Below the pieces are notes generated by a model. The model was not told the DNA's origin. It did not search any database and saw only the letters and a program-made list of their open reading frames with translations. A program made the position numbers and the translations under genes. DNA of 58,909 nucleotides, the filler included, from Platydemus manokwari (Eukaryota), in NCBI GenBank assembly GCA_037951405.1. It is 6 parts of 6 records of this genome, joined end to end, with 100 filler letters (N's around TTAATTAATTAA, not from the genome) between each part and the next. Parts side by side here need not be neighbours in the genome. Positions count along the whole stretch, not along the records: positions 1 to 9,077 come from JBBMOY011302984.1; 5 more parts are not named here. One strand, given 5' to 3'. How positions within the stretch are numbered: position 1 is the stretch's first letter; each line of letters opens with the position of its first letter. Below, piece after piece: positions 1,001 through 57,323 of this stretch.

Positions 1001-1002
1001 TT

Positions 1003-1905
1003 CGGTTTGAATATCGGCTTCATCTTCCTCCTCATGTATGCACAATATTCTCCTCGAACTATTGTAACTAGGCTTTCTGGCTAAATGTCATTCTCGGAAC
1101 GAATGTCCATCTTTACCGCATATCAAACATTTATTCCCCAGTGGACATTCAAACTTCCGGTTTCCAAGCTCACCACATCAAAAACAAGATCCTGGTTTCA
1201 AATAATCACCACGTTGTGTGGGTTTTCCTCTACAATCGTTGTAGAATTTAGAAGCAATAGCTTTCATTGATCTTGTTGGTCTCTCATTGGTTGGAAATTC
1301 CATGTGATTAACTGGTGGTCGATGATGATCCTTTGAAATACCGATTGAGCATATGTCTTCTTGATGGCGTTTATGGGCTTCTCAAAATTGGCAGACAACT
1401 CTCTTCTTCTATCATCGGACATTGAAGGGTCGAGAGTAAATGACTCTTTCAGTTTCTTGCTATTTAGACCTTGCAGAATAAATAGTCTTGAAATTTCTTC
1501 AAGAGCGTTTTTCTTGTCAAAAACCTCCAAAACTGGCTTTTTTACTCGAAGTTCAAAACTGCGATATTTATCATCTGGTCTTTGTTGCATTGCTGCAAAA
1601 TCTTGAACCTTGTCGTATACTGTTTTGGCATGAGAAAATGTTTCTAAAAACCATTTCTCAATTTCTTCATTTGAAACAGCCTCTTTGAAACTGCTGAATT
1701 CTTGCCACAGTTGTTTGGTGTCATCTCTCAAAAGCATATCAAATGCAAATGATAGTTCCATTTGATTAAAGGTCGCAAAATCTTTGGTTGTTTGGAACCA
1801 TTTCTCAGCGTCTTGAATTGATGAATCAAAGAATGATAGTTTTTTGTGCAGATTGCCAAAGATTTTCTGCCTTTCTTCTCGTTTGGCTTCAATATTTTTT
1901 TCCAT
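1003..1905 (-). mobile_element. LTR-retrotransposon (Ty3/gypsy-type) gag relic, copy 1: capsid-like ORF plus two damaged CCHC knuckles
   Basis: ORF 1264-1905 has a capsid-like pattern (FD..IQDAEKWF, LW..F, QQRPDDKYRSFELRV). Downstream in a shifted frame it reads GSCF*CGELGNRKFECPLGNKCLICGKDGHSFRE*H. No pol follows. Confidence 0.8.
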
Positions 1906-1939
1906 TTCAAATTTACACCGTTTGTTTTTTTAATATTAA

Positions 1940-2600
1940 ACTAAATCTCATTTTTTTCTAACTATCAATATTTTGCTTTCACAGATTCTTTAGCTCTAAA
2001 ATATCAGATTAAACATTGAACTCATTGTTTCATGGATTGTTTAATTTTCTAAATTTTTATTGAGAGTGATTTGGCAATGAATTTGATTAGATTCATAGTT
2101 AAAAAAATGTGTCAGTTTAAAGGTTAATCAATATATCAGAGATTTACTAACATCATAATAAGTAATTTTCATCCGGGTAATTTTATTTATAAAATCTTGA
2201 AGTATCATTCTGTTTTACAAAAAACGATTACATGAAATTTATTGTTCGATTAGTATAGCTGAAATAAGCATTCAGACGACATTATTATTTGCATTGAATG
2301 AAGCAGAGTTAGTTTGAAACAATTGAAACGAAATGATACAACAATATCTAGTTAAATATCTAGTGAAAAAACATTATTTAATGATAGTCAATTTTTTAAG
2401 AATAAGAATGATTACATTTCTATATGCTTTGTTTAATCTCGAGAGAATAAATTTCCCACGATAGTAAATGATGAAAAAATATTTAAACTCGTATCCAGCA
2501 ATAAAATGAATTATCATCAACAAAAAATAATCGTCACAACAAATATTATTTTATTAATAAAATATTACTTTTTATTAAGAACAATGGTATTAAAGAAAAT
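1940..2600 (+). repeat. Diverged direct repeat, copy A (homologous to 4929-5670)
   Basis: Colinear shared blocks: aaacattgaa, tcataat.agtaattttcat, aaaatcttgaa.ta..attctgttttacaaa, tatttgcattgaatgaagcagagtt, gatagtaaatga, agcaataaaatga, aaatattattttattaataa, agaacaat.gtattaaa. Confidence 0.8.
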
Positions 2601-4928
2601 GTATATATAATTTTTAATTATAAATTTATTACATCTTTTTCATATATTTTATCTCGAAATACAATTTTTTTATTAATTTTCAATCAAATTGAGTTTGTCA
2701 GTGCTAGTAACAATTAATATGAAATTATAGTTAAATAATTCATTATTTTATTTTATGAATTTTTTCTATATTTTGAGATTTAACCTTCAAGATAGAATAT
2801 CATTGATACCACCTAACTAAGTTTAGCATTTCCAATTTGATTGCATTTTTAGTTGTAACTGAGTTAAAGGTGTAATAGTTTACCTCAGTTGAATAAAGTG
2901 TTTTAGAAGCAATAGTTTAAATGAGATGTGTAATGGAAAATCGAACTGAGAATCGGATCAAAATATAGGTGATTATGCAATAACGAAATAAATCGAAATT
3001 CTCAAAAAAAACAAAATTTTGAAACATGTTTGCATAGTTAGTGAAAAAAGCGTACTCGTGAAATATGTATTCTGCGATTATTTCTCATGATTCATCTGAT
3101 ATTTACAAGATTTAAAAACACAATAACATTTGTCATCACATGGCCATCTATGGCTTTGCCTTACCAATTTTTTCTATAACCACCATTCTCATTGGTTTTA
3201 ATAAAAACACTTATTAAACGCACATCCAATTAAAGTGTCTATATAAGCACGGTTAATAACATGAGCGTAATGCCTACATGTTTTATTTGGTTTATTTAAT
3301 AAAATAAACTTCTGAAAAGATGAAAATTGAAATTGTTCGACCATATCTAATTGAATAATGATAATAATTATCACAATAGAATTCATCATTGTAAATAGAA
3401 ATGTTTATTTTTAATTTAAGAAAGTTTTATAATTTAAAAATTGAGTGCACATTTGCCGTTGTAATTAAACAAATCAATATTATGTTTATTAAATTTTATT
3501 TATGGGAATCAATGTAGATAAACAAAATGAATTATAATAAATATTCAATGATTGTGTTTGAAGATAGACGCATTTAAACTGATAATATAATTTTGTACGA
3601 CATATTTAGATCGTAAAGTACATTAAAAAAAGGAAATTATGTATTTTAGCGGACCAATTATGATATAATTTGTGTGTTGTTTAAATTTCTTAATTTATGC
3701 TAAAATTTGGAATAAATAATATTCTCTTAAATTGTCTTAAAATTATTTTCAAAGAGCCAGTGGTATTTTGTGAAAATAATCGACAATTATTCGGGATATT
3801 TAAATATTTAATTTTCATGATGAAATGAATAGAGGTATTATTGAAAAACTTTATTCAGCTTATTTGACTGAAAATTTGAAAATTATTTCTCTCATTATTT
3901 ATTAGAAAAGATAAAATTATAACGCTTCTTTATCAATTGATATAGCATTTAAGATTAGTTAATTTCATAGAGATCTCAAAAAGTGAATGAATTACTTTTA
4001 ACATATATCGTAGGATTTTTCGGAGTCTCAAATTTTGTAGCCTTTTAAATGTCTCTTCACTTAGTTTTGGTTGACTCACATTGAAAACCTTTAATTTTCG
4101 ATGATTTTGACGTTTAAACAATATGGTCGGTTAGAAACATTTTTAGTTGCCAACTACATAAGTGTCAATTTAATTGACCTATCTAATAGTAATCTATATT
4201 TTGTGTGTAAAGTGTGTTATGGGTGATGGAACTTCGTGATTTAATAAAAATTTTTATAAGCCGTGAGTTTAGATGTATGGTAAGATGATTACACAATATT
4301 TAAAAATATCTAACTAATTGTCTTTACGTTTTTCGTCTGTTTTACACTTCCTTTAATATTTATTTTCGTGTATGCAACGTCGTACTTTTTCTGATTGATT
4401 AGTTGTTTGCCTAATAATTAGTGTTCGTGGCACTTCTCCAGGTTATCATAGTAATATGAAAATAGACAAGGTTGTGCATAAATATTTTGTTTATTTCTTA
4501 GTTTTTATCAATATTTATGCTTATTATTATTTTATTTATTTATTTTCTCGTGCCTGTGAGTAATGAAATCATATTTTGTTTATATTTATTGCATCTTATT
4601 CTCGTTTAAAAAACATAAAGAAATGGAATTGTTAAAACCTGAACAACTATTAATATTAATTTGAGCAAATAAGCAATTAATATGATTTTGTTTCTCTTTT
4701 TTATTTCTTGTTTGAATTTGTAAATGTTTCTATTTTAGATATTTTTTATTAATTTTTTATGAATAAAAATACGAAAGATCTATTTCAAATAGTCTTCAAG
4801 ATTTTGGGTTTTATTACGATATGTCTTTATAATTTCGTTAAATATTATTCAGTGAATTAACAACATTATTATTGTCACTTTTTTGACAGCTATTAAATTT
4901 TTAATTCATGGAGCAATTCCAATGTTGA

Positions 4929-5775: not shown

Positions 5776-6490
5776 TTTTTAGAAACCTTTTCACATGCCA
5801 ATACAGATTATGACAATGTTCCGGATTTGGCAGCAACGCAACAAAGACCAGATGAAAAAAACCGCAAATTTGAACTTCGAGTAAAGAAGCTAGTTTTGGA
5901 GGTGTTTGACAAGAAAAACTGTCTTGACGAAATTATTATTTATTTTGCAAGGTCTAAATAACAAGAAATTGAAAGAGTCATTTACTCTCGATCGTGCGAT
6001 GTCCGCCGATAGAAGAAGAGAGCTGTTGTCAATTTTGAGAAGTTAACTCCGACTAAGCCCATAAACGCCATCATGAAGATATATGCTCAGTCGGTATCTC
6101 AAAGTGAATCAAGGAAGATCTTTAGGACGTAGATGTTGTTCAAAAAGCCAACCCTAATCGTGCAAGAAACTTTGGTAAAAAAGAATATCATCGAGCATAT
6201 CGTTAATCGCACTAAATTTCTAAACAATGAGAGACCAACAAGATCAATGATGGCTATTGTTTCTAAGTTCTATAACGATTGTAGACCAAAAAACACATCA
6301 GGCGGCGATTATTTGAAACCATTTGTTTGTATTTGCTGTGGTGAGCTTGGACATCAAAAATTTAAATGTTCACTGCGGAATAAATGTTTGATATGCGAAA
6401 AAAAAAACATTCATTGCTAGCTACAATAGTCCAAGGAGAATACTGTACATCCATGACGAAGAAGATGAAGCCGATTTTCAAACTGAAAGT
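5776..6490 (+). mobile_element. gag relic, copy 2 (same family as 1003-1905, opposite orientation, 5' truncated and frameshifted)
   Basis: FLETFSHANTDYDNVPDLAATQQRPDEKNRKFELRVKKLVLEVFDKKN aligns with copy 1. ORF 6133-6420 carries CICCGELGHQKFKC (CCHC) and CLICEK. Confidence 0.85.
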
Positions 6491-7049
6491 GAAGCAAGTG
6501 ATTGTGTAAGCTCACTCCCCATTGTAAACAAAAAACTGGAATCAACGGAATCAGCTAGTGCAACGGTACACATATTGAAATGTTATGGGACGAATCAACA
6601 TTATATTTATTTAATTTTGTGTTTTTGTGATGCATGTAAATAAACAAATTGAAATTTATTTATCTAAAAATTTCAATGATCGACTTTCAAGAAAATTTTT
6701 TTTTAACTTGATATTCCAATTTTGTAAGAAAGATTTAATTTTTTAACCATTTATAAAATGGTAATATTAATATTTTAAGCAAGTCATTTTGATATTATTT
6801 ATGCTTTGTATAAACTGTGTTAGTTCTTTTAAAATAGGAAATAAATAATAATCTATCAAATTGATTGAAAATTAATTTAATGGAGTTAGTGACATTTTGT
6901 GGTAATAATGATAAATTATATTTGTTATCCTTTTTCTGAGGTCAATCTGTGGAAGTCGATAGGTTTGAATTGTGATAACATTCGTGGCTTCTGCGATAGT
7001 TGTATTTTTTATCAGAGTGGGTGCCGTAATAATGCTCAATTGTAAGGTG

Positions 7050-8200
7050 ACAATCATTATGGCAACTCATTCGCCATTTCAAGTAATTGTTAGTGTATCT
7101 CAGATCTGGTATCGTAATCTATTGATTATCAACTTTGTACAATGAAGATATGAAATGGTTTCATTCCGCTGGTTGAAATAATGGATTCTTTTTGATTAAT
7201 ACATGTGATATTGCTTGCGTATATCAGTTGCTATATTTTTGAGATTGGCAATTTTTTGGCACTCATTACTTTTAGTTATGATAACTTGCAATGTTTTGCA
7301 TTAACCTCAATACGAAGCTTCCCACTTATACGATGGAATCATCCGTTTGTTATAGGATTTTTCTTGATGTTTATGATAATTTCTTTGTTTTTGTACAATT
7401 ATTTTGTAAGAATATCTAGTAAATATCGATTGAAGTTGCAAATTGTGACAGAAATAACCAATTTATTTAAATAAGCTGATATTTAGTTGTAAACTTCAAT
7501 GATCTTGGTGGCATCTTATGCCATTTTCTCACTGAAGTAGAGGCCTTTGTTGATGGTCTCATACACAAGGATCAAAATTTGTTTATAGATGTTTTTTTTT
7601 ATGAGTTGTATGATATCTCTATTAAGTAGCGGTTTCATTTATTGGCGTATAATTAATTTGTTTCAGTTGTAATGCTAGAGTCATTCTGTTTGGCTTATAA
7701 AATTTTTTCACATTGAATTTTTGTGTGTAGATTTTCTCCGTCGCATAGAATATTGCAATTTGTTGATCTTATAGGTGTATAAACCCCCTGTGACAAACAT
7801 CTAGGTTAGGCTTAAGCATCTGAAGATAAGGAAAATGAAGATGCTGAAATTGTAATAATTTATTCCGTTAGCTACACTTATATAATCTTCAATAAGGCCA
7901 TATTAATGATCGGAATTATAATGCCTTGTGTTTGTGTGACAATTGAAATACAAACATTGTAATCTGAACTTTCGCTCGGGTAACGAAAATGAATACAATT
8001 GAACTAAGGCTACAGCCACTGTCTGGTTGTGCTGTGTATGCATAAACTGTGTGAAGACAGAGAAGGGATGGCTACGTATTCTCGATATTGCTCCGTAAAA
8101 AGAACTTTGGTCGAATTGTAAGGCACTAATTTCATTTGAAATCAGAATAGAGTTGCAGTAATGAATCGAAATCGGGTAAGACAACCATTGCTTTGGTTGA
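7050..8200 (-). pseudogene. Decayed glycoprotein-like ORF resembling class III viral fusogens (chuvirus G / herpes gB-like env)
   Basis: Allowing for stops and frameshifts it reads IHYCN ... FRCLSLT/CLSQGGLYTY/CNILCDG ... CNFNRYLLDILTK*LYKNKEIIINIKKNPITNG*FHRISGKLRIEV/CKTLQVIITKSNECQK/LPISK..LIYASNIT ... LYKVDNQ*ITIP. The Cys/Gly spacing matches my recollection of chuvirus G. Confidence 0.4.
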
Positions 8201-9077
8201 TGTGGTTATCTAGAGTTTTCTTTCATTTCGTGTTGTTGCGGTGAATTGTTTTTGTCTGATTTTTAAAATTTTGAACACACTTTGCTGTTGATATTGCGAA
8301 GGGTTATTGTTTTGGTTGAGAATGAACCCGTATGGTAGTATTTGGGAGTGGGTAAAGTTGATAGACTGTCAATGCTCAAATTTCAATGGATAGTCGATGA
8401 TGATTGATTAGTGAATCTCAGTTCTGAGTGATACGACCTGAGGTCAAACTGAACCCATTTATTGAATACGATATTTGTATAGAAATATTTCCTATTAATG
8501 AAGTATTCTTGAGTGATCTTACCTATAGAAACAGTCCTTGAACCATTATCTAAAAATAAATGTAACTTTTTCATATTACACAAGTTAATAATAAAAGCCG
8601 AATATATAATGTAAAAATAGAATCTTACAAAGCAATTTTAAAATTTAAACTTGTTATGAAAGTACTTATGAAGACCATTATTTTAGGATTTGTTTCAGGA
8701 GTTGATAATAATAAATTACTTTTTTTCCGGGATCTTGTTTATCAGCAATTGAAAAAAATATATTCTGGCTTGCCTTAATGAATGTAGAATTTTTGATAAT
8801 TACTGCGAGTTATATATCTGGAAAAGTTGCATCTATAAAATCGAATATTATTTTTAGTTTTTCAGCTAATAGTATCCTTCCAGGGCATTGATATATTAGA
8901 GAAATGAAATAAAGTAATCGATTTACAAGTGTTTACTAAAAATGTTCTGACAGATTGAAATGATAATTTAATACACTTAAAGTTACATATTAAATAATAA
9001 ACAAGTATCAGGTGTACCGGTATGAAATGAGCGTTAAGATACAAATATGTTGGTAGGGAAGATTTGTTGTGAACAAG

Positions 9078-13632: not shown

Positions 13633-14801
13633 ATGAGATCTGTTAGGTTGAGTGCTGTTGTTGGTGGTGGAACAATGTGTTGTTATTTCATGATCAGAAC
13701 CGATAATGACTTTATAGTTGATGAATTTCCAAAAACTTTACCAGTAAATTATTTCATTTTGAAATGATATCGTGTTGATCTGATACATTTCTGAAGGTCA
13801 CATTGTACAGAATCCTACCTTTGTGTTGGATATCGAGGATGTGTGGATATCTATCAGAAGTGGAGATTCCAGTTCCTCTCCGAGGTCTCATTTTGGGTAA
13901 TTATGTTCGATTAACCGGTTGTGATCTTTCCGAGGCTAAATTGAGCAATGTTCAAGATTATAAGTCATTATCCGACCTATTTCAACGCCAATTAAAATGG
14001 GACAGTCGTTCAATTGACAGATATGCTGATCTAGTGGGTTTCGTTCTATGAATATAGATGATGTTGAAATTGATTTTACAGATTAGCCCATGCGATGGAA
14101 AAGTTCTTCATGTTGGTGAGGCAAGAAATGGAATCATCGAGCAAGTTAAAGGGGTCAGATTTTCGATTACAGGCTTCCTAGGTAAAGATTTTGATTTCTG
14201 GGAAAGCGCCATCAAAGACCAGAAACCGAAGAACACAACAAAAGCACAACCAAAATCTCTGTTTTACTGCACAATCTATCTTGCTCCTGGCGATTATCAT
14301 CGATTTCATGCGCCGACTGATTGCGAATTGTCTTATCGTCGATATTTCACTGGCAAATTACTGTCGGTGAGTCCACGATTGGCCAAGATTATTCCAGGCT
14401 TGTTCTCGGTGAATGAACGCGTTGCCTACTTTGGCAATTGGAAACACGGATTCTTCACGTTCACTGCGGTCGGAGCGACAAATGTTGGCAATATTCGTGT
14501 TTTCGCGGATACTTCGTTGCCCCAGAACAAGGATGGGCAGAAACTTGATTTGATTGGCAGAAGAAAGGAAGGAGAAGCACTGCGAACCCCTAAAGACCAG
14601 CCTGTGACCTGGGAGAAGAAACTCGCACCCGCTATTAAATTGAGTCGAGGGCAGCTGTTTGGTAAATTTAATCTGGGCTCGACGATTGTACTGATTTTTG
14701 AGGCACCGTGGGAATTTAAATTTAATATCAAGACTGGTGACACCGTTCGAATGGGTTCACCTTTGGGTTCGGCGGTAGTTGAAGAGCATTTAGATAAATA
14801 G
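13633..14801 (+). CDS. PISD: Phosphatidylserine decarboxylase proenzyme (mitochondrial type); exons 13633-13743, 13797-14033, 14082-14801; an in-frame upstream exon 13501-13540 may extend the N-terminus
   Basis: Motifs VTLYRILP..ISR, ISPCDGKVL, EQVKG, IYLAPGDYHRFHAP, NERV...G.WKHGFF, VGATNVGNI and the autocleavage site GKFNLGSTIVLIFE. GT-AG introns of 53 and 48 nt keep the frame; AATAAA at 14831. Confidence 0.96.
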
Positions 14802-34401: not shown

Positions 34402-35462
34402 ATGTCGCAGAAATACAAAGATATCATTAATGGTTATAACGAAAGTCGAGAATACCTTAACCAGTATACTCGTTTAGTGATTGTGCTAAAGTAAGATCAA
34501 AATTATTTAATTACACTTCAGATAATGTTTTATCTTGTAATTTTAATGAATTTATTACTTTCATGATTGGCTATTTCAACACAATAATGACGATTATTGG
34601 ATTGATGGTGAATGGCTTAGTTATTTATCGATTTTGTAAAATGCCTCATTTTACCAAACACAAATTGTACATGATAGCATTAGCTGTCTCAGATATATTG
34701 ACAAATATTTTTTGTATTTGGTTGTTTCATTTTCCGAATTGGGCACTTCCTGCGATATCGGAAGGCAAATATTTTTGGAATTTTATGTTGAGAAGTGATT
34801 TTCTCTGTAAATTTACACATACTGTGTTTTTCTTCTGGAACCAGATGTCTTTAATAACTTTAGTAATTTGTGGAATCGATAGATGTTTGGCCATAAAATT
34901 ACCACTTCGCTATCGATTATGGGGAAATAAAATAGCAATAATAATTATTATTATTTCAATCATATTGAATGTAATTTTTTCTTCGCCACATTGGATTATC
35001 AGGAAAAGAGAATATACAGTTTCACTGGGTAAATTTAATTGTCATGTAAGTGGACTTCATAGTATTCTTAGAATTTATAATTATTATTTATTACTTTTTC
35101 ACCCTCTTGGTCTTGTTTGGATTTTTATACATTTGGTAATGAATCTTGTATTAATACATGCAATAATCAGTCATTCGAAATATTTAAAGAAATTAAGAAA
35201 TAATGAACAAAATAAAAATAAAAATCGTCGAACGTCTGAGATTAGATCTTGCATCGAAGTATTTACATTATCTACCATATCATTTTTATTAATTTCCACA
35301 TATGCAATATTATATTTTGTGTCGTTTTACTTTCAAGGTATGCCCATACAAGCATTTTTACGTAGTAGTGGTCTCATATCCTTACTTATTTATATAAGTT
35401 CATTAAATATCAACTTTATTCCATTATTAGTAAAATCTTTTAAGAAAATGCGACATTGTTGA
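34402..35462 (+). CDS. Orphan rhodopsin-class (class A) GPCR; exons 34402-34471 and 34522-35462
   Basis: Seven hydrophobic segments with TM1 G..VN, TM2 YMIALAVSD, TM3 C...DRCLAIKLPLRY, TM4 P and an ECL2 Cys. A 50-nt phase-1 GT-AG intron adds the N-terminus MSQKYKDIINGYNESREYLNQYTH, which contains an N-glycosylation sequon (NES). Confidence 0.9.
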
Positions 35463-36929: not shown

Positions 36930-38885
36930 AACTCCAAAATTGCAAGCACTGTGTTATGCTTAGAAATCGTCCGTATAACGTTTATCATTGCAATGGTTGA
37001 GTACTTGGGCCATCGATTCCACTGCAGTACTGCATCGACGGCAATTCAATTCTTTACCCTACATTATACGGAGATCTAGGTAATTCAGCAGCAGAAGGTT
37101 CTTTCTACCCAAGACCAGGAAGTTACAAACTTGTAGTGACAACACAATTGAGTCCGAGACTCCCATGGAAACCTTACATAGCGCAATAGACTTAACTAAT
37201 AAACCCTGGCACTATTTCACAGTCCAAGAGATACAACTCAAGAAATCAAACCCATCATGAAGAATAGAAAGCAATTTATCCTTCTCTTTGTTACCTATCA
37301 TATATTGTGAATCCCCTTAGACAACATTTAATAAAGATATGTCCTTCAAGCAAGTCGAATTTATAATTTATGCCTCTCTTCTGCAGAACCCGGACTCTAA
37401 CCAAACCTTCAACCACCAAGAGCCTGTTCCAGCATGCTCATCATCAATTGTGTTGTTTAGTCCTATGGAATTCGTCAACGTCAGAATGATTAAAATGCTT
37501 GTTCATTAGTGCCATCAATCTCTTTTGTGTAAAAAAAGCAAAGATAGAGTCTGAACTGTTCAACAAGAGAAAATCTACTACTATATTCTGGCATTAATAG
37601 TTAATTTTCGCTGGCATAGGGCAAAGACCATCCAACCTCCTACAGGTATATAGAGAGTCATTATTAGGTGATAAAAAAAAGATAAATCCTATTTTTTTCT
37701 TAAATAACTGTCTGATTTTTTCATCGAAAGCAAGTTTCCTGAGCTTACTACCCATCTACCTCTAGTGTGATAGGGAAGAGATAAAATACTCACTTCTCTG
37801 TTTTGAAGGTAAAACGGCAGTCTAGAATGTAGAAACACTCTAAAGGCATTTAGACTTTGGATCGGATGTAAGTTCTTATTACAAATAAACTCGAAGTCGG
37901 AAATGAGATTATTTTAAATGTAATTAAAATCTTTCCTCTTTGAGGAACCAAAGGAACTTCAAGATATTTGTTTGATTCTTTTCATCGACTTCTGGAATAT
38001 CAATATCGTATATTTTGAGAACCGTTCTTTTCATCGAATCAGTACAATGCATTCAATCAAATTAAAAGTAAGGTAAACCTTACTAGCGAAATACACAATT
38101 CGAACTAACAACTCAACAATCCTTGGTGTATCACTAGAAATAACTACCAAGTCGTCAGCATAAGCCATTATAGAAATTTCTATATCAGATAATAGGAGAG
38201 GTCTCGGTAAATTATTAACAGACTTAACAAGGAAATCTATCGATAAACGGAACAAAGACACCCACAAAGGATAACCTTGTTTGACACTCTTAACTAAATC
38301 AAAAGAAGGAGTGACTTTACTCTCATAGTGATATGTAGTATTCAAGCCACTATACAAATTCTTCAGAAGGTCGGTTGTGCTGAATGCACAACCCATCTTT
38401 TCCAGAGTCAAATAAATTAACTCATGAGACCAGCTAGGAAAAGCATCCTTAAGATCTAACCAAAAGAAATGGGAATTTGCCCTTGACATTTTACAAGATT
38501 CGTAAATAAATTGAAGGCATGCATTGTGCTCAGCACAACCATTCTCAGACAAAAGCGTTTTTTTTTTATTTCCAGAGATTAAATCCCCCACTGGTAATCC
38601 AATTGATCATACGAACGTTAATAATGTTACAAAACAATCTATATGTCATGTCCATTAGCGTAATTGGTCGCCAAGATGACACTAAGTGTGCTTGCCCATC
38701 CTTCAGTGTTTTTAATATAAGAGAAGTCCTAAACGGTTTCCACTGATCCAGCACTATCCCTGAACTTAACACTAGATTTAAGAACCTATGCAAAAACACA
38801 AATTTAAGATCAATCTCACACCAATCCTTGAACAACAAGCCATCGTTACCAGGAGCAGATTTTATCGAGGTTTTGAAAGCACAGT
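36930..38885 (-). mobile_element. Non-LTR retrotransposon relic of the R2/NeSL/Utopia (RLE) group: RT plus C-terminal CCHC
   Basis: RT motifs KSAPGNDG, SSWRPITL...YRLF, GCAEHN, WLDLKDAF.S.SH, VKQGYPL, MAYADDLV, YLEVP. Downstream CRRCSTAVESMAQVLNHC...KHNTVL at ~36945-37043. Several frameshifts. Confidence 0.9.
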
Positions 38886-39237
38886 GTATGTAACATCTAC
38901 TATGACTATTTATATTATGTCATCATACATACCGAACCACATGTGTTATTAGTTTTTGATTTTTAAATCGATATGTAATAATAAATACTTTCGATTAGCA
39001 TCTAATTTTATACTGATAAAATCACGGACCTTAAAACTTCATCTCAATTTGTCTTGTCATTAATTTCGCATAACAAAGTAGATTTAGAGCGTTGTGATTT
39101 ATTAATGCATCCATTTTGTCAATTGCATCATCTAAACTGTGTTGAACATTTGTGAAAATGAATATTGATGAATTATTGATAAAATTATGAATAATTGTGT
39201 TGTATTTTTTAATATGAACGATAAATTCTATTCCTAG

Positions 39238-45575: not shown

Positions 45576-47198
45576 AAATTTGAACTCATGGAAATAAGAA
45601 TTGATTATCAAAGTGAAGTTTTATAAAAATATTTGTAGATCAAGATAAATTTGAAAAAAATTTAATTGTTAGATAAAATTGTTAATTTTATGCAGAAAAA
45701 TTTTTGTTCGAACAATGTGATAACATCATTTCAATAATCATGGCTTCTAAATTTAATCAAATTATGAATCGTTACTATTAAATAAATATAAACAAACTGA
45801 TTATTTCTTTTGCATTTATTTTATCTTCATCAGTTAATATATTAGCCTCACAAATCACTTTATAAAGTTATTACTGATTTTCATTCATAACATTTTCGAT
45901 TCAATCTTTTTTATGATTAACATAACATGTTTATAACCTAAATAATCTAGAGCATTTAGCAGATAGCTAATTTTATTGGCTTCGATTTTTTATAAAAATC
46001 TTATAAGAAAATATCAAATGGGGATCATTTTCTTTATATAATTTTTTATATCTTCATGATCTTTGTTCGTTAAAGAATCATAAAATATTATAAATTCTGG
46101 CAGATTATTTTTACAGGTTTATCATGAATAAAATTACCAATAAATGGAGTAATCTTATGGGAAATAATGAATTCAATAACTATAAAACTATTCATATAAA
46201 TACAATAACACAGCTTTTACGGAAAATTATTTTGTAAAATTTCGATAAGAGTTTGAAATACGTTGGCCGATACCCGTAAACTTTTTAATTGATGTAGAAA
46301 TGAAAATAAATTATGTCGAGTTATGCCATCACAGCTTTTAAAGAGTAATTCCATGAATTCAGAATTCATGAATGTAATAGTAAAAATGTTAGGTTCTACA
46401 GTGGTTAATCATAAATGAAAAAATTTTGAAATTATTTTTAAAAATTTGGCAGAGTAAAGTTTAATTAATTCTCAAGATTTCGAGATATTAAAATTCAGAA
46501 TGTAACAGAAATGCATCGCATACGTTTTTAATCAGTTTTTACGAGATGATTTATGGCCCGGTGCCATAAAATGATTTCATTGAATTGAGATATTCTGCTG
46601 ATATGATGTCAAAAGTCAGTGGAATTTTAAAGGAATTGTCATTGAATAATAGTAAAACATAGAAAATTTTGGAAATTGTCAAGAAAAATATATCGATGTT
46701 TCGAAGTTTAGGCGGGTTAATAAATTAGCTAGAACCTAATATATTCTAGTTTCAAAAGTATGTTTACGTTGTGTGAAAAAATTTGAATAACTCCTGATAA
46801 ATGGATTTCCTTACCTAATAGAAATATTGGTAAACCTCCTGAGAAATTAGAACTAACTAAATTACTTAATAAATTTTACGTCTTTAAATAATTTAGCAAT
46901 CTCTGGAATTTATTCACCAGAAAACCTGGAGCAGGCTAGACATAACCTACTGTTTCCATTAAAAGGCGACATATTATAACCTAGTTAATCGATAATTTCT
47001 AATTAAAGTGAAAAAGAAAAGGTAATTACAAGTAATTGTTGAGCCTTAATCATAAGGTGACACTCATTATAATGAAATAAAATCTGAGGAAATTTTATAT
47101 TTTTTGGGCAGCTCTCTCTATCTTTTTGATTAGAATGTATGTTTTGTTTACATTTATAAAAGTTCTTGAAACAAAATACTGTCCACATATCTTTTATA

Positions 47199-47972
47199 TT
47201 GGGTTGGTACATAAGTTCGTGCGGTTTTTTACAATTATGAAAAATGCATATTGATCAAGAACAAAATCCATGCAAAAAATTCCAGATAACAAAATGAATT
47301 TATGAAATCATTAGAAAAAACAAATATCTCAGATATTCTCCGTCACAATCGATCACTTCCTTCCACCATTCTGACAGTTCATCAACCCCACATTTGAAGA
47401 AGCTTATTAATTTTTGCTTCTTCATTTTCAAATATGAGACCAGAACGATGGTTCAACATGGAGCGGAAAGATAAAAATCTTTTGGGGCTAGGTCGGACAA
47501 ATATGGATCATGGGGAAGAATTTTCCAACTTTGTCATTGTGGTGACATGAGGTCGAGCATTGTCATGGTGTAAAATTATTGTTTTTGACTGGTCTTCTTC
47601 GCTTTGATTACAGTGTTTACTCGCTTGGGTTGTTCACAATAAAGTTCGGTATTCATTGTTTGGTTTCTTGGCAAGATTTCGCAATGAAAAACACCAATTT
47701 GGTTTCACCAAACGCACAACAAGATTTCGCGTTGATGAACTTCGGGTTCCGCACCTGTTTGAGGCTGGTTTTTGGGACTTATCAAAGCATTTTTGTGTTT
47801 CAAATTTACATACAGGCACCATTTCTCATCACTTGTTACGAGCCTGGAAAGCAAAGATTTATGTTGCTGCACAGCAGATTGATGGTGAACGAGAAAGATG
47901 CACAGATCGAAACACGTTGATTTTTGTGACTTTCTTTGAGAAGGTGAAGTGTCCATGATCCAAGCTTTTGGA
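47199..47972 (-). mobile_element. Mariner (DD34D) transposon, 5' truncated and decayed, with its 3' TIR
   Basis: KLGSWTLHLLKESHKNQRVSIC (WVPHEL-like), RLVTSDEKWCLYVN, LLCVW, ILHHDNARPH, PYLSDLAPKDFY. TIR is TA + TTGGGTTGGTACATAAGTTCGTGCGGTTT at 47197-47227. Confidence 0.93.
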
Positions 47973-48461
47973 AAAATAGTGATGCTATCACAATCCGATT
48001 TGTTATAAATTAGTATGAATATAGAATCAAAGGATTCCCATTCGGTTTACTAATTTTGAAAAGAGTATGGTAACACTTTCTCAGAATACTCATCTTGGAG
48101 TACTATCCAACCAAATCTGATTCCAATAAAAAGTTTTTTTATGATATAAAAACCGATAACGGGATTATAAATGAAAATTAAAATACCATATTGAAATTAA
48201 TCATTAATACGGACCTCATTTATACGGACAGATCTCATTTCAAATTATAATTAATTTGATGATTTTAGGGGTCTGTAGTTTTATTTTATTTGAATTTCAA
48301 AGTTTGAAATTTTTTTTGCTTTGGCAATATCTGAGTCTAATCAGCTAATCGGGTAATCACTAAAGCTAATATTTTTATATTTCTTCGCCTCGATCACATC
48401 AATCCACGTATGAAGACGGGATGGGTGGCTCTAGATATTGCAATAAAGATTTATATTATTA

Positions 48462-54800: not shown

Positions 54801-57323
54801 ACAACAATAAATGATAAAAACAAGATATTTTAATTGTTTAATGGATAAATGGACTTGGTTAAAGGAGTTTTTATTAGGCTTCCACAATTTTGTCCATTTT
54901 TCAATTTGAATAAATAGCATAACTACCATAAAATCAACATTTTATTTTTATTTCTTTACAAATCTCGATAATTTTGGAGTTTGGGGTAAAATTAGATAGG
55001 TACCCCTCCCCAGATATCGCTTGATTAAACAATATAAATAAATAATAAAATGTGTTACTGTAATAGTTAATTTCTAATTATTTCTTAATCCAATTCAAAA
55101 GAAATTAAATATTTTTCAGAGTAGAAAGTCCATCGCAGAAATTATTGTGCAGTTGCGTTTAAATCTGTCGAACATTTGATAATTAGATTGCAATACAATA
55201 CTCTGCAAATTATTTTAATTTTAATGCACAAATAATTTACTTATTACTAATAGTAGTAGAAATGTAAATGAATATTTTATTAAAATTTAACAGTTTGGAT
55301 GTTAAAACTCTACTCTTATTTCTTTAAAACTCAGTAGATAACTAAAATTCTTCCATAAACATAATAGATAAACTAACGTTTCACAGTGATATTAAATTTT
55401 GTAGAATATTCCATTTGTTCAAGCCGACCTTCCAGTTTAAAAACATTGTAATTGGATGATTTGGAAGACACAAGCCTGATCATGAAAAACGCATCTCCAG
55501 GAGAGAAAATTGATGAAGCCTGGCCATTTAAATTTGGATCAATCAAATCGCAATAGTACGAAATGATCATTTCAATTCCAAACGGCAAATTAATCGATTT
55601 TGATTTTTTTTCTCTCAAATTGTTTTCTGGAACATATAAAGTATTGACGTTGCTAAAAATCATTAATTTATCCAAATCTATAATTGATTTCAATCGACTT
55701 GTTTTAAAGCGTTTGCTTATGATTCCGCGGATAATATCGTTGTTTGGTTTCAGTTTGTGGAGTTCTACTTCATAAATATTTTTGCCAACCAGTAAACCAA
55801 ATTCGATTTGCAACGTTTTCATGGTTTCAAGAATCCACTCAGACTCGAGTTCAGTTTTAAACAAACCCAAATCAAAACCCAAACTCATGGACTGGACGAA
55901 TTTGAATTCCGGTTGTACTTTGAATAAAAATTGAGTATTTTTATATGGTTTGATCAATCGTTGATCTATTTCGATTTCAATATCCGAATGGATTATTCGA
56001 TTAACGGTTCCTTTATATTTTATTCCCATTATTGTTGGAATATTCAATTCTCCATCAAGAAACATGAGATGCTGTATTTCAACTACTAGGGATTTATTGC
56101 TCTCAAGGAAATCGCGTATCATTTCAGTATGATTTTTCAAATAATCCTCAAACACATGTTCGATTCCAAAAAGTATGACTTCATTGTTGAAATATCTCAA
56201 TGCTATTGTGAAATCGGAAGATTCGACGAGGTTTTTATTTTCTTTCAAGATTGAGAATATTTTATCAATGAAATTTCTATTAGTGAGAAAGATTTCAGAA
56301 ATGTTTCCCATGTTTGTCAATTTTAATTCCATTCCAAACCCTTCAAAGTACTGATTCGAGTGGCTTTCAATTGCCAAAATGTTGATGGATGCAGGAAGAT
56401 GATGATATGAATTGTAAACGGTGGTTGTCAAGAAGAAAATTTTTTGACTGGGTACTCTTATAATTTGGGAATTTGAGTATTGGAATTCGAATTCTTCTAA
56501 TTTGATTTTCCGAAGAAGATCTTTGTAGACACTTTGAGGAAAAATTTCATTCAAACTTAGTAGCATACTTTGAAGAAATGATCTAATTTGTTTTATAGGC
56601 TCATTTCTGTGAGCGTCTATCAATGCCTCAAGTATTTGTCGATTTTTGCATTTGAGTAGAATGTCGAAACACGCTGCTATTCTCACCTCTATGTCATCGT
56701 TAATGTCAGAAAATATAGCAAAGAGCAATTCATTTATTTCTTTTCCTTTTTCAATTCTCGACACTTTTCTCAGTGAGTTAATCGCTTGAATTCTCAGTAT
56801 TGCAGAATATTTTTGGTTCATAATAATTTCTTCAAGAATTGGAAAAACCTCGACAATACCTAAATTTCCGAGACATTTTATCAAAATAAGATTTTTGATG
56901 TTCGTATTCAAGCTAGTATTAGAATATTTTAGATGCTCGGTAAAGTAATTTATCATTTTCATTCTGCCATGATACTGTTCCGATTGACTTTGAGAGAAAA
57001 ATGCGTTTGAAAGGCTTCCTATTGTTAGCCATAGGGATTTTAGAGTGTTAGAACAATAGATATTTGTTTTTATTTTCGGATTTTCTGCGGCATCCTAATA
57101 AAGATGATAATATTATTATTTAGATAAAAAAAATAATTAAACCATAAGGAAATCAATAATTTCATAGTCATCGACAATGCTTAAACTGGCCAGTTTGCCA
57201 ATTCGCCAAGCCATTTGATTGTCATATCTTGAATTATAATATTGATTTGATAGAAAAGCGTTCACAATAAATTTCGTTGATGCAATTGTCTGAACATTTG
57301 AGAGAATATCATAGAACCGTTTC
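51860..57323 (-). CDS. Large lipid transfer protein (vitellogenin/apolipophorin-like: lipovitellin helical domain, DUF1943-like region, VWD), 5' part missing; resolved exons include 57323-57143, 57094-55378, 53534-53054, 52695-52404, 52356-52221, 52126-51860
   Basis: RFYDILSNVQT, LWLTIGSL, LIKCLGNLG, LRIQAINSLR, DIEVRIAA, EPIKQIRSF, IPTIMG. VWD motifs TC...VISFDGFSY and LRGICGNYDGELYNDF. Introns checked in the VWD region keep the frame; several small middle exons (54330-55330) are only partly resolved. Confidence 0.9.
53576..54200 (+). mobile_element. TRIM-like miniature or internally deleted LTR retrotransposon in an intron of the lipid transfer gene
   Basis: Direct repeats 53576-53754 and 54010-54200 both start TGTGAG and end AACA. 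A purine tract AAAGAAAGGGGAG (53997-54009) abuts the second repeat. The internal region is ~255 nt. Confidence 0.7.

Follow-up and report, generated by a model that had tools for sequence, protein, structure and literature searches.

The closest described systems are the giant gypsy-like LTR retrotransposons of planarians, Burro and GYPSM1, in which BCL2 and protease flank an in-frame env (Arkhipova & Yushenova 2019, PMC6431247). The passages of that paper on Burro describe a polyprotein of Gag with CCHC knuckles, a BCL2-like motif, an env with matches to mononegavirus fusion glycoproteins, and PR-RT-RH-IN, and they report decayed Burro fragments in Dugesia japonica too. GAG-ENV-POL errantiviruses with an ENV of the HSV/gB type are known from Platyhelminthes, Nematoda and Bryozoa (Chary & Hayashi, eLife 2026, PMC13524379). 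In the relevant sections of that survey, the intact platyhelminth elements come from Macrostomum, Prostheceraeus and six Schmidtea families (nine rows), the errantivirus ectodomain is flanked by a signal or second membrane segment, and the furin site is not always retained. A gag-env-pol layout with a class III env has thus already been published for planarians (PMC6431247, PMC13524379). In mosquitoes, BEL/Pao elements named Anakin are described as carrying a chuvirus glycoprotein (Dezordi 2020, PMC7642597).

The window, as the whole 58,909-nt stretch of Platydemus manokwari DNA that was analysed is called below, is a pack of six parts with 27-29% GC. The locus lies in the first part, contig C1302984 of a very fragmented genome assembly (911 Mb, 1.99 million contigs). 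The initial annotation read the minus strand of 7050-8200 as one decayed class III fusogen-like glycoprotein gene, and all of its peptide words were found on that strand: IHYCN (8166-8152), RCLSQG (7802-7785), GGLYTY (7788-7771), CNILCDG (7757-7737), NNCTK (7403-7389), FHRISG (7338-7321), KLPI (7254-7243) and YKVDNQ (7139-7122). They do not make up one gene. The last four lie within an env fragment at 7071-7700 and the first four within a different repeat at 7702-8589, here called repeat B. The class III reading was kept for 7071-7700, which covers about 250 of 653 profile positions, and was given up for 7702-8589. A DNA search of the genome with window 7000-8300 gave 27 matches in two sets, one for 7071-7700 and one for 7702-8330. 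With high confidence, 7071-7700 is taken to be a dead internal fragment of a class III env from a Ty3/gypsy family with gag-env-pol layout; at about 7701 it meets an unrelated repeat, probably by way of a deletion or truncation.

The env fragment proper, on the minus strand at 7095-7700, is a decayed internal piece of a gB-type env (PF24664, Monjiviricetes_fusion) that corresponds to about profile positions 205-450 of 653. Next to it, also on the minus strand, is a 24-nt tail at 7071-7094 that is common to the closest decayed copy, L064, and absent in L061 and L063, where the match ends at 7095. The common tail suggests that the window copy and L064 go back to a common ancestor that was already rearranged. 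About seven stops (near 7516, 7483, 7416, 7339, 7224, 7161 and 7119) and five to six frameshifts (near 7457, 7428, 7393, 7301 and 7245, with one at about 7617-7653) interrupt the fragment, at places that depend on the alignment. Env similarity is confined to 7095-7700, and the signal, the N-terminal part and the transmembrane helix or membrane anchor are missing. The window copy cannot work and is drifting sequence.

In frameshift-aware searches, the fragment aligned to open env relatives far above shuffles. Against L011, the score was 155, with 68 of 145 residues identical over 7617-7188, compared with 31-39 for 12 shuffles and 32-38 for nine other window segments. L009 matched at 7223-7098 (29 of 42 identical, E 4e-11), and a further short env match was found at 7666-7628. 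Protein identity to L011 and L009 was 47-69%. At the DNA level, L064 is 79% identical over 598 nt, L011 71% and L009 82%, within a range of 69-82% for same-genome copies at K2P distances of 0.21-0.37. The fragment has a GC content of 30%, against 43.5% in the open copy L011. It scored 173 on a 35-sequence profile of retroelement envs from its own genome and 50.8 on a profile of 108 stand-alone G proteins (shuffles up to 47.6). The window's own frames, with X at stops, matched no relevant Pfam family, so that the link of the fragment to class III is transitive, via its relatives; none of 152 proteins (P0001-P0152) matched it at E<=1e-3. Many broken copies of this already known type of element exist, and window 7071-7700 is one of them. 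Elsewhere in the window, 46875-46958 (+) weakly resembles the C-terminal part of the L009 env over 28 aa (E 0.008) and is possibly another env relic.

The open relatives carry the profile clearly. With a PF24664 cut-off of 27, L011 (405 aa) scored 142 bits (E 2e-41) and L009 (493 aa) 123 bits (E 9e-36), and the env frame of L009 continues into an aspartyl protease without a break. At least 76 matches over the cut-off are present in this genome (68 scored of 629 candidates), and 0 of 14 control genomes matched. The ectodomain of L051 was modelled from an alignment, and the model is moderate (pLDDT 60.7) and of a distant family member, not of the window copy. Every PDB match listed for it was a herpes gB (best E 1.2e-10, TM about 0.25), and among viral G proteins it matched those of qin-, chu- and xinmoviruses (best E 1e-31). 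A PDB sequence-profile search with the env profile gave no match. The predicted fold of L051 is class III, of the chuvirus-G/gB type.

A profile search of 1.84 billion proteins returned 2119 relatives at E<=0.001, and 10 of 12 long top matches scanned had protease or RT domains after env. In a tree that took in 56 of 57 rows, with the window copy left out, 15 envs of this genome form one group (94/90) within the polyprotein envs; the node uniting all polyprotein envs has only 85/86 support, and 29 stand-alone glycoproteins fall outside it. When L011, alignment A3 and the window GPCR served as queries in word-based protein searches, nothing matched, which is weak evidence. The database proteins P0003, P0004, P0005, P0007, P0015 and P0153 are env-pol polyproteins, several with repeated aspartyl-protease matches; P0153 (4844 aa) has up to six aspartyl-protease stretches together with ankyrin and C2H2 matches. 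P0008 carries a Flavobacteriaceae MAG label, probably a binning error.

In contig C1468085, gag, env and pol share one frame of 3304 codons. Its first 2828 residues hold, in this order, zinc knuckles, env, protease, RT, RNase H and integrase, and the contig ends carry a direct repeat of 426 nt that is 88% identical. Env and pol domains share single frames in L051, L053, L054, L055 and L056, with the full order gag-env-PR-RT-RH-IN in one frame in L051 and partial order in L053-L056. The family nearest to the window is represented by L156, where gag, env, PR, RT, RH and IN lie on the same strand with breaks; none of the nearest-family contigs has a whole unbroken frame. The pol domains of the relatives are RVT_1, RT_RNaseH, RT_RNaseH_2, Integrase_H2C2 and rve, and no Pao-specific Pfam family was found among the 21 frames scanned. 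Judged from sequence, with the Ty3/gypsy assignment taken from these Pfam domain types, the source family is a Ty3/gypsy one that carries env between gag and protease, in the same frame as both and mostly preceded by a Bcl-2-like domain.

The Bcl-2-like domain is best seen in L158, of the nearest family, where the stretch L158:968-1708 is in frame with the env start and reached E 5e-7 and 30.6 bits with the Bcl-2 family of Pfam, just below the cut-off of 31.4; its match to Bcl-xL had an E of 0.006. Bcl-2 matches of about E 0.002 were found in L054, L055 and L057; in L051 and L053, where the aligned GW motif of the region is also present, no such match was listed. Across several divergent families a conserved W..GGW motif, which we take to be BH2-like, is seen in this domain directly upstream of the env signal helix. 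An AT-hook-like word occurs upstream of the domain in L054 and L055. A single-sequence model of the domain was uninformative (pLDDT 43) and was set aside. Hydrophobic segments over threshold were found just upstream of env in L055 and L158 and not in P0001 and L053, and downstream of env in P0001, L053, L055 and L009. A Bcl-2-like domain upstream of env was considered as a new feature and dismissed as such, being already described for Burro.

Just past the gag-env-pol frame of C1468085, within the terminal direct repeats, is an ORF of 677 aa (L052:1644-3674, equal to G000:C1468085:11644-13674). It matches the ISG20 exonuclease (1wlj, E 3.7e-7) and has no Pfam match. Its relatives give at least 131 matches in the genome (150 scored of 346 candidates), many without stops, and at seven other loci checked no pol match was found beside the ISG20-like ORF. 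DEDDy exonuclease cargo is described in rotifer LTR elements, in passages from which ISG20 is absent (PMC5408684).

The relatives share with Burro, as the passages on that element present it, the in-frame order of Gag, Bcl-2-like domain, env and PR-RT-RH-IN. They differ in size and cargo: the Burro ORF is given there as 4873-5140 codons with MATH, BIR and ankyrin cargo, whereas the whole relative found here is compact, at 3304 codons, and the first 2828 residues of its frame gave no Pfam match to MATH, BIR or ankyrin. The family is Burro-like and not Burro proper. To the GAG-ENV-POL errantiviruses, as far as the survey sections go, the family is likened by layout, not by sequence identity, with Ty3/gypsy pol, gB-type env and the same order; the survey entries are intact, whereas the window copy is a fragment. 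The Anakin glycoprotein, as described, belongs to the same superfamily and was likewise captured by an LTR element, but in another retrotransposon superfamily and host, and the env described here precedes a Gypsy-type pol in the same frame. Sacco is said to have reported in 2022 that nematode non-canonical ERVs have ENV placed before POL; that order is alike, and the host is different.

Repeat B is present in the window as a truncated minus-strand copy at 7702-8589 that holds IHYCN, GGLY and CNILCDG and lacks about 570 model positions on the side of the env fragment. A DNA profile of 24 copies, 1637 positions long, matched the window copy at 7707-8589 with its positions 570-1607. The repeat is 1.33-1.43 kb long in five copies with both ends and gives at least 60 genome matches (40 scored of 155 candidates). 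Among 24 other copies, IHYCN and C..S..C were found in none, C.IL.DG in one and GG[LV]Y in seven. In eight of nine copies compared, the match to the window ends at 7701-7707 and is followed by each copy's own sequence, unlike the env fragment. Window 7702-8360 aligned to 13 of 13 repeat B loci (scores 130-585), and none of 13 env loci aligned (26-43; shuffles at 38-52). For the env half, 10 of the 13 env loci aligned (145-484) and no repeat B locus did (39-60; shuffles 49-59). The locus sets were partly picked by the half that they matched; what is informative is therefore the lack of any locus, among those examined, that matched both halves. The repeat B profile found no match at env loci, including 0 of 15 in a second set.

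Repeat B also gave no env signal of its own. On the 35-sequence own-genome env profile, nine loci scored 34-42 (shuffles 28-49; true envs 152-918). On the 108-sequence stand-alone G profile, the 24 copies scored 29.5-46.3, at shuffle level, although this profile is limited in power and also missed a true decayed env, L064 (score 46); tblastn gave nothing at E<=0.05. No env family of Pfam was found in 21 frames of four copies, and 3-nt periodicity was absent, with one of 17 windows at p 0.048. The frames share 9, 13 and 13 stops on the minus strand and 24, 24 and 25 on the plus strand. An ancient coding origin of repeat B is possible, because the stand-alone profile missed L064 and the minus strand has fewer shared stops. 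Window 7700-8300 was also considered as a plus-strand integrase and rejected, with no Pfam match and no tblastn match from P0001. In five copies, the ends of the repeat are TTCACTTG and TTAG, TTAA or TCAG ahead of a T run. The base preceding TC is not A, the hairpin is weak and variable, and the 3' flank is T-rich. Head-to-tail junctions occur at two loci, L092 and L098. No shared terminal inverted repeat was found in five copies, and Rep/helicase was not found. Rfam gave a single match on repeat B and the window locus, below gathering score. Repeat B (window 7702-8589; L084-L108) is an old, separate interspersed repeat with fixed ends; from these ends, a Helitron/Helentron-like nature may be guessed.

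On the other side of the env fragment, a gag relic (towards protease) of a high-copy Gypsy family lies at 5776-6590 (+), as context outside the feature, and another repeat, 69% like window 3469-3780, fills 6590-6909 between the two. The gag family has 1391 candidates; its copies are gag-protease-RT, with no env found. This relic was considered as part of the same element as env and rejected: env or repeat B was present at 0 of 14 loci of the gag family, and pol matches at 7 of 14. The caution of the initial annotation, which did not join the two, was borne out. The gag relics at 1001-1963 (-) and 5776-6590 (+) belong to one high-copy Gypsy family, in inverted orientation and 75-82% alike.

Other parts of the window contain a 573-aa frame for a vitellogenin-like lipid transfer protein (55373-57094, -), a 333-aa frame for a rhodopsin-family GPCR (7tm_1; 34461-35462, +) and an open frame of 247 aa with a phosphatidylserine decarboxylase match (E 2e-46; 14058-14801, +). 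An RT relic, non-LTR-like, lies at 38031-38919 (-) and a mariner-type transposase relic at 47546-48046 (-). The vitellogenin-like and 7tm_1 frames show that the host is an animal, and the low GC (27-29%) together with the Burro-like layout suggested a flatworm.

An env-like word order by eye, the same orientation of both parts and the fewer shared stops in the minus-strand frames of repeat B would each fit a single decayed glycoprotein gene at 7050-8200, with repeat B as a far-diverged gB-type env or the whole as a recombinant of two env lineages; the stand-alone G profile is a weak negative here, having missed an equally decayed true env. This reading is unlikely, since none of the loci examined holds both halves, the other repeat B copies run past the junction into non-env sequence, the repeat stays at shuffle level on both env profiles without a Pfam env or periodicity, and it shows its own fixed ends and, at two loci, head-to-tail junctions. 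An assembly error as the cause of the junction at 7701 is very improbable: the assembly is very fragmented, yet one Logan contig (depth 11) covers 6594-8931 without a joint and differs at a single letter. The run behind it may be the assembly source, so that this support is not independent.

The initial annotation had left the origin as an endogenous viral element or the env of an LTR element and named BEL/Pao among the sources; the enveloped LTR element was upheld, and a free chuviral insertion was not. An independent insertion derived from a chuvirus or one of its RNA virus relatives, or an Anakin-like BEL/Pao env, is scarcely credible and largely refuted. The family fold is indeed nearest to qin-, chu- and xinmovirus G, and no gag or pol of its own lies beside the window copy, but its DNA is 69-82% identical to copies that are joined to protease and RT. 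The far higher score on the retroelement env profile than on the stand-alone one points the same way, and the pol of these gag-env-pol relatives has Ty3/gypsy-type domains, with no Pao-specific family among the 21 frames scanned. The preferred reading is thus a dead env fragment of the Ty3/gypsy family beside an unrelated repeat, and it most likely arose by insertion followed by decay and deletion. More generally, a motif series read by eye can span two unrelated repeats.

For an intact element, the proposal is that the helix following the Bcl-2-like domain would serve as internal signal and thread the ectodomain into the ER, and that a second helix would stop transfer, so that Env would lie in the ER lumen and the Gag and Pol parts would remain on the cytosolic side. 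Cleavage by signal peptidase and by the element's protease would then free Gag and Pol, and a gB-type trimer might let particles fuse with other cells. The open relatives, and not the window fragment, suit the questions of how Env can reach the ER with Gag and Pol kept in the cytosol and whether the Bcl-2-like domain is functional.

The locus adds one more host genome with Burro-type gag-env-pol elements. We put forward, tentatively, that this genome hosts several compact open-framed families of Gag, Bcl-2-like domain, gB-type Env and Pol, with the Bcl-2 tail helix serving as the Env signal and one family carrying an ISG20-like exonuclease, and that these might form infectious particles which pass from cell to cell and blunt apoptosis. 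If so, the compact families would provide a small, tractable stand-in for the giant Burro, and the window fragment would be their fossil.
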